Shown here: in pieces, positions 1,885 to 21,425 of the stretch | How the letters are laid out: the number at the start of each line of letters is the position of its first letter | Numbering within the stretch: the stretch's first letter is position 1 | NCBI GenBank assembly: GCA_039589315.1 | Contig: JBDHHQ010000079.1 | Span: forward strand, 1 to 21,425 | Origin: Gemmatimonadota bacterium | GTDB lineage: Bacteria > Gemmatimonadota > Gemmatimonadetes > Longimicrobiales > Gaopeijiaceae | Direction of reading: 5' to 3' | Length of the DNA stretch: 21,425 nt | Program-made: the position numbers and the translations under genes | Notes under the pieces: model-generated | The model's input: only the letters and a program-made list of their open reading frames with translations | What the model was told of the DNA's origin: nothing | The model's database searches: none

Positions 1885-2364
1885 ATGGTCTTCTTCGTCC
1901 CCCCGCAAGCTGGAACTCCCGGTCCCGCCGGTCCCACCGGACCTACCGGATCGGCTGGGTCGGTAGACGAGCGGTTCTACCTCCGCTTCACCCATGGCGG
2001 TGGCGTCCCGACGAGCGGCAGCCAGTATCTGAGGCTGGGTGTAGGCGTTTTCAGCTCCGAAGACGGGGCCCTTCCCACCGCCGACTTCACGATCCGCGGA
2101 ATCTCGATTGCCGTGGACCAGGTCGACGGAGTGCAGGACTACACCATCCGGGTCCTCAGCGACCCTTCGGGAGCTGGAGGAACAGGACCAACCGTCGAGG
2201 CCACCTTGGCCCTTCCTGCTGGCACTCTCCGAGCTCGTGACCGCACTCTGGCGGTAGCGGTGGCCGGACTTCTGGACCTCGGCGTGCGCGTCGACAGGGA
2301 CGCGGGCGCCGCGGCCTCTGTCTTCAGCGACATGGTGGTCACGGTAGAGGTAAGTATCCCATGA
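1885..2364 (+). CDS. Short collagen-like protein with C-terminal beta-rich domain, paralogous to the C-terminus of 2361..4736
   Basis: 159 aa. [17 protein letters not shown] followed by [18 protein letters not shown]...VVTVEVSIP, which matches [18 protein letters not shown]...VIIVELSIP in the next gene. Confidence 0.8.
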
Positions 2365-4736
2365 GCAAGACGCTGGTCATTCGGTCGAACGCTGGAACAG
2401 GCTCCGACGTCCTCGTCCGCGACATGGGGTTCCCGATTCCTGCGGGCGGTGGCCAGGTCATCCTGGCAAGCCAGTCCCAGGACCTGCGCACGCTCGCGAC
2501 CGACGACGTGTTCAACCCTCTCGGCTCGACGCTGATCCTCACGGACGGCACGACCGACGTCCCAGACGCCAACGTGGACGTCTTCCTCACGAACCTGGAC
2601 GAGCAGATCACCGGCGGCCCGTACGGAATTGCTGGCTTTGACGAGTCTGGCAACCCGATCCCGCCAGGAATCACGGGAGAGACCGGGCCGCAGGGCACGA
2701 CCGGTCCGCAGGGTGCCACGGGCCCAGCCGGTCCCTCGGGAACTGGACCTACCGGCGATACGGGCCCCCAAGGCGCGACGGGTCCGAGCGGCGAAAGCGG
2801 CGAGACAGGAACCGAGGGCGACACGGGCAACACCGGCCCGCTCGGGCCGACCGGAGCCGGCGGCGACACGGGCCCCGTCGGCCCGACGGGTGACACCGGA
2901 ACAGGCGTCACCGGCGACACGGGGCCTGCGATCACGGGAGCCACCGGACCAACCGGAGACCAGGGCATCCAGGGAGTCACGGGACCGACCGGAGACCAGG
3001 GGATCCAGGGCGTCACCGGCGACACCGGACCCCAGGGCGTGCAAGGCGCCACGGGAGGCACGGGAGACACCGGCGACCAAGGCAACATTGGTCCGACCGG
3101 AGCCACGGGCGACTCGGGACCCACCGGCGTGCAAGGCGTCACGGGCGACGTTGGCGCCACGGGCCCGCAAGGAATTCAGGGCGCAACTGGACCGACTGGT
3201 GACCAAGGCGTGCAAGGCGTCACGGGCGACGTTGGCGACACGGGGCCCACTGGAGACCAGGGCATTCAAGGGGTCACGGGACCAACCGGAGACCAGGGAG
3301 TCCAAGGCGTCACGGGCGACACTGGGCCGCAAGGAATCCAGGGCGTCACCGGCCCAACCGGAGACCAGGGGATCCAGGGCGTCACCGGCGACACCGGCCC
3401 AACTGGAGACCAAGGGATCCAGGGTGTCACCGGCCCAACTGGAGATCAAGGGATCCAGGGCGTCACCGGCGAAACGGGCGACACTGGCCCGCAGGGAATT
3501 CAAGGTGTCACCGGACCGACGGGTGACCAAGGGATCCAGGGCGTCACCGGCGACACCGGCGATCAGGGCGTCACGGGACCGACCGGCGATCTCACCGGGC
3601 CCACTGGTGACCTGGGCCCCACAGGTGACCAGGGTATCACTGGACCGCAGGGTCCCTCGGGCACTGGACCCACCGGCGACACTGGACCGCAGGGGCCCTC
3701 GGGTCCGAGTGGCGAAAGCGGCGAGACGGGTATCGAGGGCGACACGGGCAACACTGGTCCGCTTGGTCCGACCGGGGTGGGTGGCGATACAGGTCCGGTC
3801 GGGCCAACGGGTGACACCGGCACGGGAGTCACGGGTGACACGGGCCCACAAGGAATCCAGGGCCCCACAGGACCGACCGGCGACCAGGGCGACACCGGCG
3901 TTACCGGCGACACGGGGCCACAAGGAATCCAGGGCGTCACCGGCGACACCGGCCCGCAAGGAATCCAGGGCGTCACTGGCGATACCGGCCCGCAAGGAAT
4001 CCAGGGCGTCACCGGCGACACCGGCCCGCAGGGCGTGCAGGGCGTCACGGGCGTCACTGGTGACCTCACCGGTCCGACCGGAGACCAGGGTATTCAAGGT
4101 GTCACCGGCCCAACCGGAGACCAGGGGGTCCAAGGCGTCACCGGCGACACTGGCCCGCAAGGAATTCAAGGTGCCACCGGCGACACGGGAGACATCGGGC
4201 CAACAGGACCGACCGGCAACACAGGCGACGTTGGTCCAAGTGGAGCTTCGGGAGAGACGGGGCCGGTGGGAACGGGAGCCACCGGGCCCACCGGAGATCA
4301 GGGCGGCACGGGTCCGGACGGCCCCACGGGCGACACCGGCCCCCAGGCCAATAACTATTTCCTGACGTTCACGATCAGCAACGGCGTGCCCACCTCAGGA
4401 ACGCGCTACGCGAACGTGGGCCAGAACGTCTTGAGCTCCGAGGTAGGCATTCGCCTTCCGGCAGCGTCGACCCTGGTGGGTATCACCTACTCAGCAGACG
4501 CTACGCCGGGCGCGTCTCGGACCTACGACGTCGAGGTGATCAGCGACCCCGCTGGCACGCCCTCGATCGAGGCCACGCTGGCAATCGGCAACGCAGAGTC
4601 GGCAGACTCGAGACGCGACCTCAGCGTTGCTATCGGCGCAACCACGCTCCTCGGCGTCCGCATGACACGGCAAGCCGACGCTGGTTCCTCGAGCTTCACG
4701 GACGTCGTGATCATTGTCGAGCTCAGCATTCCGTAG
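2361..4736 (+). CDS. Long collagen-like fibre protein (about 560 aa of Gly-X-Y, Thr-rich and acidic) with globular N- and C-terminal domains
   Basis: 791 aa; ATGA overlap with the previous gene; [15 protein letters not shown] triplets from about 2667 to 4347; no signal peptide evident. Confidence 0.92.
2667..4347 (+). repeat. Collagen-coding tandem repeats: 36-nt units ([12 protein letters not shown] / [12 protein letters not shown]) plus a 198-nt block duplicated at 2730-2927 and 3651-3848
   Basis: Repeated units such as ggagaccagggcatccagggagtcacgggaccgacc with synonymous variation. Both 198-nt blocks encode [62 protein letters not shown]. Confidence 0.9.
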
Positions 4737-4745
4737 GGGTAGTTC

Positions 4746-19463: not shown

Positions 19464-21095
19464 ATGTCCCTCGACTTCGTACCATTCGGCGGCGTGGGCG
19501 GCCCTGGGCCTACGGGTTCTCCTGGACCAACCGGTCCAACCGGAGATGCCGCGGGCCCCACGGGCCCCACGGGTGACTCGGGCCCCACGGGCGGGTCGGG
19601 GCCGTCTGGCGGGACTGGTATCGAGGGCGACACCGGGCCGTCTGGCGCCACCGGGCCCGTTGGTCCGACTGGCGGATCAACCGGGGCAACCGGCCCGACC
19701 GGCGACACCGGAACCGGAGGCACCGGCCCGACCGGCGACACCGGACCTACCGGTGACACCGGCGACACGGGACCGACGGGCAGCGTCGGCGGCATTGGCG
19801 CGACTGGCGCGACTGGCCCCACGGGGCCGGCCGGCGACACCGGCAACGGTGGCCCCGTCGGAGCGACGGGCAGCACGGGCAGCACCGGACTCACCGGCAG
19901 CACGGGGCCGACGGGGCCGACGGGCAGCACGGGGCCGACGGGGACAAGCACGACCACGGGGCCGACGGGAGACACGGGACCAGGACCGGCCGGGCCGACT
20001 GGCCCGACCGGCAATAGCTGTCCCGCAGACACGCTCGCCAACGTGCTCGCCGCCGGCAACACGACCGGGGGCCTTCCGATTCTGGTCACGGCAGGCCAGC
20101 GGATCGACTCTGCAAGCCCGGCTGTCCTGAGCTTGGGAACCTCGACCGCCACGTCGGTCGAGATCGGCGCGGCAGCGGTTCCCGTCTCCATGCCTGGCTG
20201 GCTCAACGTGGGCAACACGACGCAAGCTGTCGCCCAGGGTGACTTCTCGGCAGGCCTGACTGGCGGCGGCAACAGCCGGCTCTTCTTCGACCAGAGCGCA
20301 AGGACGCTTCAGTTGAGGCCCGGGACGACAAACGACACGGTCGAATTCCGCCTCGGAGCGACCAGCACTGCGGGAAGCCTCCAGATCACCACGAAGACCA
20401 ATGGCTCCAACGAGGTGGAGATCAGGGCGTCCGATCCGGCAGCAGGGTCTGGCACGGATCTCAGGCTCACCGCCGGCAACGGTGTTGGCGGCGCCTCGGG
20501 GGGCGGCCAGCTAAGCATAACCGGCGGCGTCGGGGCTGAGGCGAATGGTGGCCAGCTCAATTTCCGCGGTGGATCAACGAGCGTCACCGGGCCTCCGAGC
20601 GGGACCCCTACTGGCGCGGCGCTCTTCCTTGCTGGAGGTTCAACCTCGCTCGGCGGCCGCCCAAACGAAGGCGGCGCAGTCACGCTAGTCGGCGGGTCGG
20701 GCGTGGTAACCGGGTTCGACGGTGGGTCGGTAACCTTCTCGGGCGGCCCCGCAATCAGTGGGGGCGCCGGCGGCCTCTTGACCCTGCGTGGCGGCTCGGC
20801 CGTTACCGGTGCTGGCGGCAGCGTCGTCATGGACACCGGCGCGGCACCCGGCGGAACCGAGGGCACGATCTCGATCGGCACCACGAACGCCACCTCGGTC
20901 AGCATTGGGCGCTCGGGACAGAGCATTGGCTTCTATGGCGTGGCAGCCGTCGGCCAGTCTGCGGCATACACCCGCAACGCCGCCGTGGTCGAGGACCGGA
21001 CGCTGCTTGCCAGTGCGAGCGCGACGAACGTCAACAACAACAACGTGCTCGCGGCGCTGATCGCCGACTTGCAAGCGGTCGGAATCTTCGGCTAG
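19464..21095 (+). CDS. Collagen-like fibre protein with Gly-rich beta-repeat region and phage-fibre-like C-terminus
   Basis: 543 aa. About 170 aa of Gly-X-(T/S), then repeats such as [36 protein letters not shown] and GGLLTLRGG; ends [11 protein letters not shown]...[15 protein letters not shown]. Confidence 0.88.
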
Positions 21096-21105
21096 GAGCG
21101 GCAGC

Positions 21106-21425
21106 ATGTCACTTGACTTCGTTCCGTTCGGAGGAGTGGGCGGCAAGGGCCCAGACGGCCCGACGGGTGCGACCGGGCCAACCGGCTTCGTCACAGGGCC
21201 AACGGGGCCGACCAGTCCTGACTCTGGCCCCTCTGGCCCGACGGGTGCGACCGGGGATACAGGGCCCGTCGGAGAGACCGGGTCCCAAGGACCCACGGGG
21301 CTTCCCGGAACCGGCGGCGTTCTCGGGCCGACTGGGGACGTGGGCCCGAACGGGACGGGACCAACCGGCGAGACGGGCAGGTCGGGGCCAAGCGGAGGGA
21401 CTGGCCCAACCGGCTCCACCGGGCC
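21106..21425 (+). CDS. Collagen-like protein, 3'-truncated by the window edge
   Basis: Not in the ORF track because it has no stop. ATG 21106 after TAGGAG reads [27 protein letters not shown]...; its first 13 aa are identical to those of 19464..21095. Confidence 0.88.

Follow-up and report, generated by a model that had tools for sequence, protein, structure and literature searches.

Predicted O-glycosylation of collagen-like fibres encoded by a fragment of a large prokaryotic virus

Virus-encoded glycan coats have been established in the giant viruses of eukaryotes and in a few mycobacteriophages, where they are found on the capsid and tail tube. The glycosylation clusters described for the Megavirinae comprise 6-33 genes, and their fibrils depend on a three-step Qui2NAc route, for example that of Megavirus chilensis mg534-mg539 (PMC10117803). 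The Mimivirus collagen modification by L230 is described as taking place on hydroxylysine (PMC9614988), while mycobacteriophage glycans are placed on the C-termini of capsid and tail tube proteins (Freeman et al. 2023, as cited in PMC12619734). In spores, SgtA of Clostridioides difficile adds O-GlcNAc to Thr in the GPT repeats of the adjacently encoded BclA3 (PMC7157674). A bacterial route to a related sugar is provided by WbvB-WbvR-WbvD, which makes UDP-L-QuiNAc for the O-antigen in Vibrio cholerae and Rickettsia (PMC6765297).

The window considered here is the whole of contig C79 (JBDHHQ010000079.1, assembly GCA_039589315.1), 21,425 bp within a bacterial MAG bin of 6.67 Mb (95%-complete). 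All 23 plausible genes lie on the + strand, to which all coordinates below refer, and from position 1885 onwards they overlap or are spaced by 1-30 bp, in agreement with the single-strand, tightly coupled arrangement described in a previous sequence-only reading. Collagens of Gly-X-Thr type account for four of the genes and a six-triplet stub for a fifth; alongside them are six glycosyltransferases (GTs), two methyltransferases and a sugar-pathway trio. The 11 glyco-genes (GTs, methyltransferases and trio) fall within the 6-33 of the Megavirinae (PMC10117803), which bears out the suggestion that the cassette approaches giant-virus glycosylation complexity.

At least five collagen genes had been proposed and four are real. 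The fifth (1885..2364) is a stub with six triplets and is chiefly a free copy of the TNF-like C-terminal domain of colA (41% identity), with 59% identity to its orthologue in the complete virus G041. The longest, colA (2361..4736), has an N-terminal domain, 183 Gly-X-Y triplets (longest run 73) and a C-terminal TNF/C1q-like jelly-roll trimer domain; 92 of the triplets (50%) have Thr at Y, and the collagen region contains no Lys or Arg and has a net charge of -59. colB (4746..6464) shares a paralogous N-terminal domain with colA and has 66 triplets (33 with Thr) and an internal BclA_C domain (PF18573, E 2e-10, over cut-off). At the far end of the contig colC (19464..21095) has 59 triplets (35 with Thr) followed by a Gly-rich region, its C-terminal 100 residues being common to the virus contigs G046 and G047, and colD (21106..21425), with 28 triplets and an N-terminus like that of colC, is cut by the end of this 21 kb fragment. 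Thr thus occupies 50-59% of Y positions across colA-C. The collagen regions are nearly devoid of Lys, which makes Thr the likely glycosylation site and sets these proteins apart from the substrate of Mimivirus L230. No further Thr-rich collagen ORFs were found in the bin, in which two other contigs carry runs of 8-9 triplets with 2% Thr.

The tip domain of colA was predicted by AF2 with pLDDT 90 and, when compared with solved structures (VIA), matched 4-1BBL (Z 10.0, rmsd 3.1, 116 residues aligned) and the BclA C-terminal domain (1WCK, Z 7.7); it also matches SPV1 (Z 8.2). Prediction as a trimer gave a score of 0.96 against 0.00 for the best control (pLDDT 95, 96% agreement between runs); the threshold applied was passed by 20 of 30 solved pairs and by one of 23 single chains. 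This score may mirror the likeness of the domain to solved TNF-like trimers. The fibre tip is a TNF-like domain, for which trimerisation as in BclA is predicted. Likeness to C. difficile SgtA/BclA3 and Bacillus BclA as described (PMC7157674) extends to the GPT-rich, Thr-at-Y collagen, the adjacent GT gene and the lack of a lipid carrier. In contrast to those systems, that of C79 is viral and not of the spore, has a GT-B (GT4) enzyme with an MptE/Maf-like protein as its core, and has its own nucleotide-sugar pathway, and none of its GTs was identified as SgtA-type.

The six GTs, two methyltransferases and rare-sugar pathway named in the sequence-only reading were recovered as Pfam or PDB matches of differing strength. 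GT2a (9002..9880; PF00535, E 5e-30; 67% to L011/L012) and its 42% paralogue GT2c (13093..13833) are GT2 enzymes over cut-off. GT2b (9877..10641) is GT-A-like with a DXD-type motif, matching PF13704 below cut-off (E 1e-5) and phrog_13126 (E 9e-8), with no informative PDB or NCBIfam match. Two DXD glycosyltransferases of PF04488 (GT32-type; 12255..13115 and 13769..14602) are 38% identical paralogues, each with an uncertain start codon. The GT4 enzyme (17795..19141), which has an eroded N-terminal methyltransferase domain, is by Pfam and tree the conserved core, around which the GT2 and DXD genes are lineage-specific extras. One methyltransferase (10638..11273) is of class I SAM type with a clear Pfam match; the other (11270..12277) is a fusion of an N-terminal kinase-like P-loop part (weak Pfam SKI match and motif) with a weak methyltransferase part (Methyltransf_12, E 3e-4). 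Database comparisons found no tie between any C79 GT and a proven protein GT.

The trio comprises a WbjB/CapE-like dehydratase/5-epimerase (14633..15748; aligning with 4J2O, E 5e-63, with CapE and with Mg534 4TQG, E 7e-43), an RmlD-like 4-reductase (15745..16695; PF04321 and TIGR01214 below cut-off, no PDB match at 1e-6 and no cupin family match) and a CapG-type UDP-HexNAc 2-epimerase (16692..17798; 7YA2, E 3e-86). From homology it probably makes UDP-L-QuiNAc, L-FucNAc or L-RhaNAc being possible alternatives, and it has the composition and order of WbvB-WbvR-WbvD (PMC6765297). By homology, which for the C79 reductase is below cut-off, the trio corresponds to three activities that the Megavirinae encode in this order and likewise clustered with GTs. 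In contrast to the latter, the C79 virus is prokaryotic and its dehydratase is WbjB/CapE-like with Met where Mg534 has Tyr, and so the pathway was probably acquired independently, from bacteria.

Wzx, Wzy, ABC exporter and WecA-type initiator families matched none of the 23 proteins in a Pfam search, as had been claimed. A flippase, polymerase or exporter and a polyprenyl-phosphate initiator could come from the host in trans. A single 19-residue hydropathy window exceeded 1.6, at the Gly-rich Rossmann segment with which the reductase begins, in keeping with the earlier view that there is no obvious membrane protein, and neither a membrane GT nor a GtrA-like gene was seen by family search and hydropathy. 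The description of the system as self-contained was too strong, because C79, itself cut at its end, lacks an MptE/Maf-like gene that all 11 of the other GT4 loci possess and that has no match in the 6.67-Mb bin.

Between the upstream collagens and the enzyme cassette lie five genes (6466-8973) that are neither collagen nor enzyme. They encode a DUF7483 protein with two repeats (6466..7326; family search), probably structural; a 129-aa protein (7326..7715) with no Pfam or PHROG family and no homologue in the relatives' loci compared; o226 (7712..8392), a virus-associated conserved protein with 82 homologues in tailless and tailed large viruses; and two small paralogous Cys-containing proteins of 90 and 95 aa (8405..8973; 38% mutual identity, 40-44% to G041). 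Beyond the GT4 gene lies o103 (19143..19454), a probable fibre adaptor. ORF1 (3..1841), with a Lys-rich N-terminus and a PAPS-reductase-like domain (phrog_424, E 1e-19), is possibly a DNA-modification gene outside the fibre-glycosylation finding.

A search of viral metagenomes, as the earlier reading had proposed, matched eight of the 23 proteins in similar gene order to G041, a complete 245,276 bp IMG/VR virus with DTR, and 10 of the 23 have homologues in three virus contigs of 94-245 kb (G041, G046 and G047), the proteins of which match only C79 within the bin, generic enzymes aside. C79 is thus a fragment of a large uncultured prokaryotic virus binned with a bacterium, as had been suggested. 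Its viral classification comes from synteny, there being no capsid gene of jelly-roll or tailed type within C79 and no jelly-roll capsid gene in the bin. Nucleocytoviricota with a eukaryotic host were rejected as a source, given the overlapping operon genes with purine-rich sites upstream and the phage-type integrase, RusA and Erf-like genes, or phage head and tail genes, of relatives. Two observations go beyond the earlier reading, namely the probable absence of a tail in this virus and the presence of the module in tailed phages as well.

PHROGs for large terminase, portal, major head and sheath matched none of 107 G041 ORFs (tailed controls were positive), and Pfam found no terminase, portal, HK97 capsid or tail gene in 116 ORFs; the single terminase-type PHROG match is an HTH-only 'terminase small subunit'. 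Sheath genes were absent from G041 and G046 and present in both tailed controls. G041 encodes a conserved single-jelly-roll protein (predicted, pLDDT 82; 83 homologues), a candidate capsid protein on the basis of its conservation. SPV1 (6OJ0) was its top match in two structure searches (Foldseek E 0.01; Z 7.4, rmsd 3.3, 129 aligned), a weak and generic match equalled by those to HHIV-2 and to a cellular monooxygenase. The genome carries one full match to a jelly-roll capsid profile, with two paralogues of 480 and 498 aa downstream, and a Walker-A regex over 328 called proteins, from a caller that missed some ORFs, gave six matches of which only UvrD was convincing. The Portogloboviridae are small viruses of archaea, SPV1 having a genome of about 20 kb. 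G041 may resemble SPV1 as described (PMC8812541, PMC10848233) in its single-jelly-roll candidate and in that no packaging ATPase was found among the called proteins; it differs in its 245 kb size, bacterial-type genes and low structural scores. The Helvetiavirae/Singelaviria are described as having two SJR capsid proteins and an FtsK-like ATPase (PMC8812541, PMC10848233), against one profile match and no ATPase found in G041. C79 is most likely the fibre-and-glycosylation block of an uncultured tailless lineage with jelly-roll capsids and relatives of 94-245 kb.

The core module, consisting of collagen, GT4, methyltransferase and MptE/Maf-like genes, is also found in two tailed-phage lineages. 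The association of fibres with enzymes was upheld, Thr-rich collagen lying near eight of 11 other GT4 loci (two loci are cut and one is without); L070-L074 form one clade, and this association therefore rests on about three lineages. Scans of IMG/VR with the enzymes only gave eight viruses, six with Thr-rich collagen at 0.7-3.0 kb and two cut less than 2.4 kb upstream, while no Thr-rich collagen was encountered in 34 loci (625 kb in all) chosen without GT4 as anchor. The MptE/Maf-like gene follows GT4 in all 11 other loci. A 462-triplet Gln-type collagen (5% Thr) occurs in a 39% complete record without a GT4-family match. The GT4 core matched nothing in 50,697 phage records. Module-bearing viruses have unrelated capsids (jelly-roll candidate, phrog_138 head and Mu gpT-like head).

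We hold with moderate confidence that C79 represents virus-encoded O-glycosylation of virion fibres, a reading that draws on observed gene content, viral synteny and co-occurrence and on predicted folds; Thr-rich collagen-like fibre genes around 11 sugar genes suggest that the virus most likely glycosylates its own particle fibres. The products of colA-D would form trimeric fibres nucleated by the predicted C-terminal TNF/C1q-like knob and held on the particle via their N-terminal domains or o103. Collagen rises 0.286 nm per residue and, if this applies, the colA fibre would be ~155 nm long. In the host cytoplasm the trio would convert host UDP-GlcNAc to a UDP-6-deoxy-L-HexNAc, most likely L-QuiNAc. 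Soluble GTs would place the first sugar on Y-position Thr, the likeliest candidates for this step being GT4 and the MptE/Maf-like protein, and would then lengthen the glycan, which the methyltransferases would cap. On release the particle would carry a layer of fibres coated in glycans, which may contribute to the stability of triple helices lacking Hyp, to shielding of the particle or to host binding.

It is very improbable, and largely refuted, that C79 is a chromosomal BclA-like surface-glycoprotein locus of the binned bacterium. Its presence in a 95%-complete MAG, a GC content of 65.2% against 67.5% for the MAG and the BclA_C domain of colB would fit such an origin, but all identifiable syntenic loci are viral, o226 homologues occur in none of 40 genomes related to the MAG and the GT4 family in none of 100 from its family, so that C79 does not present as an exosporium gene of a spore former, and host paralogues are just 27-34% identical. 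C79 might instead derive from a tailed jumbo phage to which the module and adjoining genes passed from the tailless lineage, or the transfer may have run the other way; the fibres would then be neck or tail fibres, and such an origin would be compatible with fibre glycosylation. We consider it unlikely, although in L070-L074 the module sits between genes for head-tail adaptor and sheath, tailed phages also have o226, the tip domain and GT4, the o226 tree intermixes realms and C79 lacks a capsid gene. Against it, o103 is found only in the three of 14 records that have the jelly-roll capsid candidate and in none of the other 11, one a complete tailed virus; ORF1, which links C79 to the tailless lineage, has its best match among the 14 in G047 (E 5e-99; 39% over 563 aa of G047:C66) against a weak one in tailed G048 (E 2e-10); and identities to G041 are 48-59% against 29-41% for tailed copies, the GT4 tree grouping C79 with G041/G047 apart from the latter (support 100/100).

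Within the same virus the enzymes might have acceptors elsewhere in the virion (the capsid protein, fibres rich in Gly/Thr that are not collagen, or internal membrane lipid or protein), the collagens being late-operon neighbours or one acceptor of several. G047:C66 (190 kb, GT4 46% identical) keeps the MTase-GT4 and Maf-like genes with only a distant 21-triplet collagen, and o103 in G047 is fused to a 1236-aa Gly/Thr-rich protein; 10 of 31 G041 structural-arm proteins have a hydrophobic stretch; and the soluble, virus-encoded GTs of mycobacteriophages decorate capsid and tail tube (PMC12619734), in contrast to the collagen acceptor predicted here. This is nevertheless rather unlikely, as the core adjoins Thr-rich collagen despite unrelated capsids, which a capsid-specific enzyme should not need. 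Serotype conversion or superinfection exclusion, through sugars attached to the LPS, capsule or S-layer of the host, is improbable: GT2a and GT2c match GtrB-like conversion PHROGs, L-QuiNAc is an O-antigen sugar (PMC6765297) and G041 has an integrase, but the GtrB matches span the generic GT2 domain only, C79 lacks a membrane GT, flippase or GtrA-like gene and the enzyme genes sit within a structural-gene block. Phage GT-A and GT-B enzymes do glycosylate DNA (bioRxiv 10.1101/2023.12.21.572611), ORF1 is PAPS-reductase-like and the genes ahead of the module in G047:C66 are those of a C5 DNA methylase and two PAPS reductases. Hypermodification of the virus's DNA, of the kind encoded by phage C5-MT/5mYOX or ThyS clusters, is even so quite improbable, since GTs that lack neighbours of this kind are judged in the same source to be less probable DNA modifiers, neither 5mYOX nor ThyS is among the 23 C79 genes, and ThyS was absent from G041, G046, G048 and G047:C66 (control positive in 10 of 14 genomes). 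PF12851 (5mYOX/TET dioxygenase) matched nowhere, controls included; the 2OG-Fe(II) oxygenase of G041 belongs to a different family.

Returning to fibre glycosylation, C79 predicts a glycan-coat strategy, with the Megavirus rare sugar, in a large and seemingly tailless prokaryotic virus on a BclA-like collagen scaffold. As the parts are soluble and total ~19 kb, the claim is testable in E. coli without the virus, and could give a new protein O-glycosyltransferase family and glycosylated recombinant collagen. More tentatively, there may exist an undescribed lineage of giant (up to at least 245 kb) tailless jelly-roll viruses of bacteria with a Mimivirus-like glycosylated collagen coat made via a bacterial L-QuiNAc pathway, in which fibre, GT4 and MptE/Maf-like protein constitute a portable protein O-glycosylation module whose initiating transferase would belong to a new class; occurring in viruses with unrelated capsids, this module would be a transferable unit exchanged across realms, between tailless viruses and tailed phages.

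The window spans contig C79 from end to end and has 65.2% GC, compared with 67.5% for the bin, a bacterial assembly of 6.67 Mb in 288 contigs. All 23 plausible genes lie on the + strand and from 1885 onwards they are separated by gaps of no more than 30 bp or overlap. Collagens with Thr-rich Gly-X-Thr repeats are encoded by colA (183 triplets, 92 with Thr at Y), colB (66 triplets, 33 with Thr at Y), colC (59 and 35) and colD (28 and 13), the last gene, which is cut by the contig end. The sequence-only reading had counted at least five such genes; four of these stand and the fifth, at 1885, is a stub that combines just six triplets with a copy of the colA tip domain. 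Acidic overall (net -59 in colA), the collagen regions have hardly any Lys or Arg, and no further Thr-rich collagen was found elsewhere in the bin. The six glycosyltransferases claimed by the same reading were recovered by Pfam (three GT2-like, two of the DXD type PF04488, one GT4), as were the two methyltransferases, of which one is a weak match joined to a kinase-like P-loop, and the sugar pathway, represented by three nucleotide-sugar enzymes. The reported lack of Wzx/Wzy, exporter and initiator was likewise upheld, with no flippase, polymerase, exporter or initiator detected by Pfam among the 23 proteins, and the sole flag in a hydropathy scan was the Rossmann start of the reductase.

Contig C79 is viral. 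The first related locus to be found, L002, lies in G041, a complete IMG/VR genome of 245,276 bp with terminal repeats, and its gene order repeats that of the window: a Lys-rich gene (ORF1 in the window, PAPS-reductase-like, 3..1841), the stub, colA, colB, the conserved virus-associated o226 (7712..8392), two small paralogues, methyltransferases and the GT-B glycosyltransferase GT4 (17795..19141). Eight of the 23 window proteins match G041. The metagenome loci L011 and L012, which represent one virus (99.5% identical), also carry a GT2, the sugar trio (dehydratase, reductase and 2-epimerase), GT4 and the probable fibre adaptor o103 (19143..19454), and in L018 collagens of 143 and 362 triplets lie ahead of the GT4 block. 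Homologues of o226 number 82, some on contigs as long as 358 kb. The synteny with G041, together with the failure to find o226 in 40 related genomes or the GT4 family in 100 genomes of the bin's family, bears out the earlier proposal of an origin in a large prokaryotic virus, and a bacterial locus is considered extremely improbable.

Generic enzymes aside, the proteins of G041 and of two further relatives, G046 and G047, match C79 alone in the bin, indicating that the bin holds no more of the virus than C79. No partner contig was picked there by NP-motif count or tetranucleotide clustering, the profile of the capsid candidate (a jelly-roll protein of these relatives) had no match in the bin, and the ends of C79 overlap none of its other contigs. 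A 28.5-kb contig carrying an identical o226 exists; contigs from three runs aligned to C79 as short pieces only, none extending past its ends. Single-protein scans of viral contigs with o103 or with GT4 gave no match, the ESM Atlas returned unnamed viral clusters only and the names of ten close GT4 homologues were uninformative. A simple repeat finder gave two 3-repeat CRISPR candidates, one of them collagen repeat DNA, with no usable spacers for a host link; the ‘Deltaproteobacteria’ of G047 is a bin label and no proof of host.

The kind of virus was examined in G041, for which 328 proteins were called with a simple gene caller, 116 being compared with Pfam and 107 ORFs (nearly all of at least 200 aa) with PHROGs. 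None of the matches was to a large terminase, portal, major head or sheath, families that the tailed controls did match; the Pfam terminase and sheath searches and phrog_2, being negative in tailed records too, were not counted as evidence. The + strand arm of G041 encodes many small hydrophobic proteins (10/31), one long basic protein and the capsid candidate, a protein of 212 aa that is conserved (83 homologues). The latter is modelled as a single jelly roll (pLDDT 82) that best matches the SPV1 capsid (Foldseek E 0.01; VIA Z 7.4), modest scores for a common fold that the colA tip shares (SPV1, Z 8.2). The capsid candidate is likewise present in G046 (94 kb) and on contig C66 of G047 (190 kb), and o103 occurs in exactly those three of 14 records with the jelly-roll gene and in none of the 11 others, a complete tailed genome included. 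Furthermore, ORF1 is 39% identical to a G047 gene over 563 aa, the end of colC matches G046 and G047, and the GT4 tree places the window with L012, G041, G047 and L018, apart from the tailed copies (100/100). Against this, the o226 tree does not separate the realms. The capsid gene is absent from the window and the link to the tailless lineage is therefore indirect, yet we consider it probable that the window belongs there; carriage of C79 by a tailed phage, a question separate from that of glycosylation, seems unlikely.

The structural arm of G041 (L047:11114 to the end of L049) holds a basic protein of 604 aa whose C-terminal part is hydrophobic, many Asn-Pro-motif proteins and two paralogues of 480 and 498 aa (40% identical); among the families scanned, no terminase, portal, ATPase or DNA polymerase was recognisable in G041 (L002, L038-L049). 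A Mom-like DNA-modification gene directly follows the capsid candidate in all three tailless genomes (L048:11847-13481; L051:11303-12430; L052:10737-12368), that of G041 being LAGLIDADG-fused. Short pieces of the gene for the capsid candidate recur at other sites in these genomes (L068:10246-10437 region of L053; G047:C66 99690-100069 and 153182-153379; G046 9241-9360). A patatin-like phospholipase, possibly a lysis or membrane-remodelling gene, is found after the glyco-module or apart from it in four tailless-type loci (L002:11148-12038; L068:10173-11099; L057:11960-12901; L018:14789-end). At L015:15774-20647, o226 and long fibre-like genes are accompanied by DnaK-like and DnaJ-like genes, recognised by eye.

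Coupling of fibres to enzymes extends to other viruses. Enzyme-only alignments of GT4 and of its usual neighbour elsewhere, an MptE/Maf-like gene, returned eight viruses when used as scan queries. The loci L070-L074 are tailed, by head or sheath matches in four and by synteny in L071, and in four of the five the stub, a collagen with the same terminal domains, GT4, two methyltransferases and the Maf-like gene lie between the head-tail adaptor and the sheath. In the L078 phage (45% GC, with a portal and a Mu-gpT-like head) GT4, the Maf-like gene and a 72%-Thr collagen occur in succession. Across 11 other GT4 loci, which amount to about three independent lineages and not eleven, a Thr-rich collagen lies within 7 kb in eight, two are cut within 2.4 kb upstream and one is without. 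No Thr-rich collagen was seen in 34 loci selected by anchors other than GT4 (625 kb in all), a count covering Thr/Pro-type collagens only, the triplet filter dropping the Gln-type collagen of L005. This last, in a tailed jumbo phage (L005:2086-7386, G042), is a 1767-codon ORF with 462 Gly-X-Gln-type triplets and 5% Thr, and no GT4-family gene was found in that record. The exception among the GT4 loci is G047, in which a methyltransferase-GT4 and the Maf-like gene stand behind a DNA methylase and two PAPS-reductase genes, the collagen has 21 triplets only and a Gly/Thr-rich o103 fusion is located elsewhere; the core can thus persist without long collagens. In that fusion (L061:11412-15119, - strand, G047:C66) the o103 domain is joined to a 1236-aa Gly/Thr-rich protein, which suggests that fibres are anchored by o103.

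In each of the 11 other loci, GT4 is followed by the Maf-like gene; this gene has no match in the bin and may, in the window virus, lie past the cut contig end. The label derives from sub-threshold matches in two of eight members to PF01973, a family that includes the flagellin Maf proteins. The N-terminal methyltransferase domain of GT4 is eroded in the window (17795-18160) and in L012, which have separate methyltransferase genes; it is fused to GT4 in G041, G047 and L018 and forms a separate downstream gene in the tailed copies. A 2OG-Fe(II) oxygenase (PF13640; L049:5676-6323), about 3.5 kb before the collagen genes across the end of G041, could hydroxylate protein or base.

In a PDB sequence search the window dehydratase matches 4J2O (WbjB), CapE and Megavirus Mg534. 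Alignment places Met at the catalytic Tyr position in the window enzyme, 4J2O and CapE and not in Mg534 or the 2GN4 dehydratase. The second gene of the trio is RmlD-like with no cupin match, and the closest match of the third is CapG. A reductase without a cupin favours QuiNAc over FucNAc, and from sequence we infer UDP-L-QuiNAc as the probable product. A comparable three-gene set in Vibrio has been described as making UDP-L-QuiNAc (PMC6765297) and the same route has been proposed for Megavirus fibrils (PMC10117803).

The colA tip is modelled (pLDDT 90) as a TNF/C1q-like jelly roll resembling 4-1BBL (Z 10.0), phage fibre and cement domains (Z 8-9.6) and the BclA C-terminal domain (Z 7.7). Three copies gave a predicted trimer score of 0.96 (best control 0.00); 20 of 30 solved pairs attain that mark, as does 1 of 23 single chains, and the pass may reflect likeness to solved trimers. 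A Pfam BclA_C domain is present in colB, and BclA has the same plan as the window collagens, a collagen region with a C-terminal TNF/C1q-like tip. Triple helices free of Hyp are stabilised by glycosylated Thr at Y, as in vent-worm collagen. In C. difficile, SgtA, encoded by an adjoining gene, is described as placing O-GlcNAc on Thr of such repeats (PMC7157674).

On balance we lean towards a virus whose collagen fibres would assemble as trimers and receive on their Thr, in the cytoplasm, a short glycan that includes a 6-deoxy-L-HexNAc and is perhaps methylated. The conserved core consists of GT4 and the Maf-like protein; the sugar trio and the paralogous pairs of GT2 and DXD genes are additions made in the window lineage. 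None of the window glycosyltransferases could be tied to a proven protein glycosyltransferase, and sequence searches of the PDB pointed to no acceptor for GT4, GT2b, GT32a or the Maf-like family. Other parts of the virion as the acceptors form a doubtful alternative, and conversion of the host surface by the cassette is quite improbable. Hypermodification of viral DNA by the glycosyltransferases is very improbable, and the lack of any ThyS match on the viral records argues against it; the TET search gave no match in any record, controls included.

Among GenBank phages, the dehydratase and epimerase are found together in just four submissions, two of Staphylococcus and two of Listeria phages, and these resemble host DNA. 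GT4 and the Maf-like gene have no match in 50,697 GenBank phage records. The literature covered, mostly outside subscription journals, yielded no account of a group of large tailless jelly-roll prokaryotic viruses or of glycosylation of phage collagen fibres. Virion glycosylation by virus-encoded enzymes and glycosylation of collagen Thr are of known kinds; the novelty lies in the carrier, in the GT4/Maf-like core, in the possession of a Megavirus-like pathway by a prokaryotic virus and in the presence of one module on both sides of the realm boundary.
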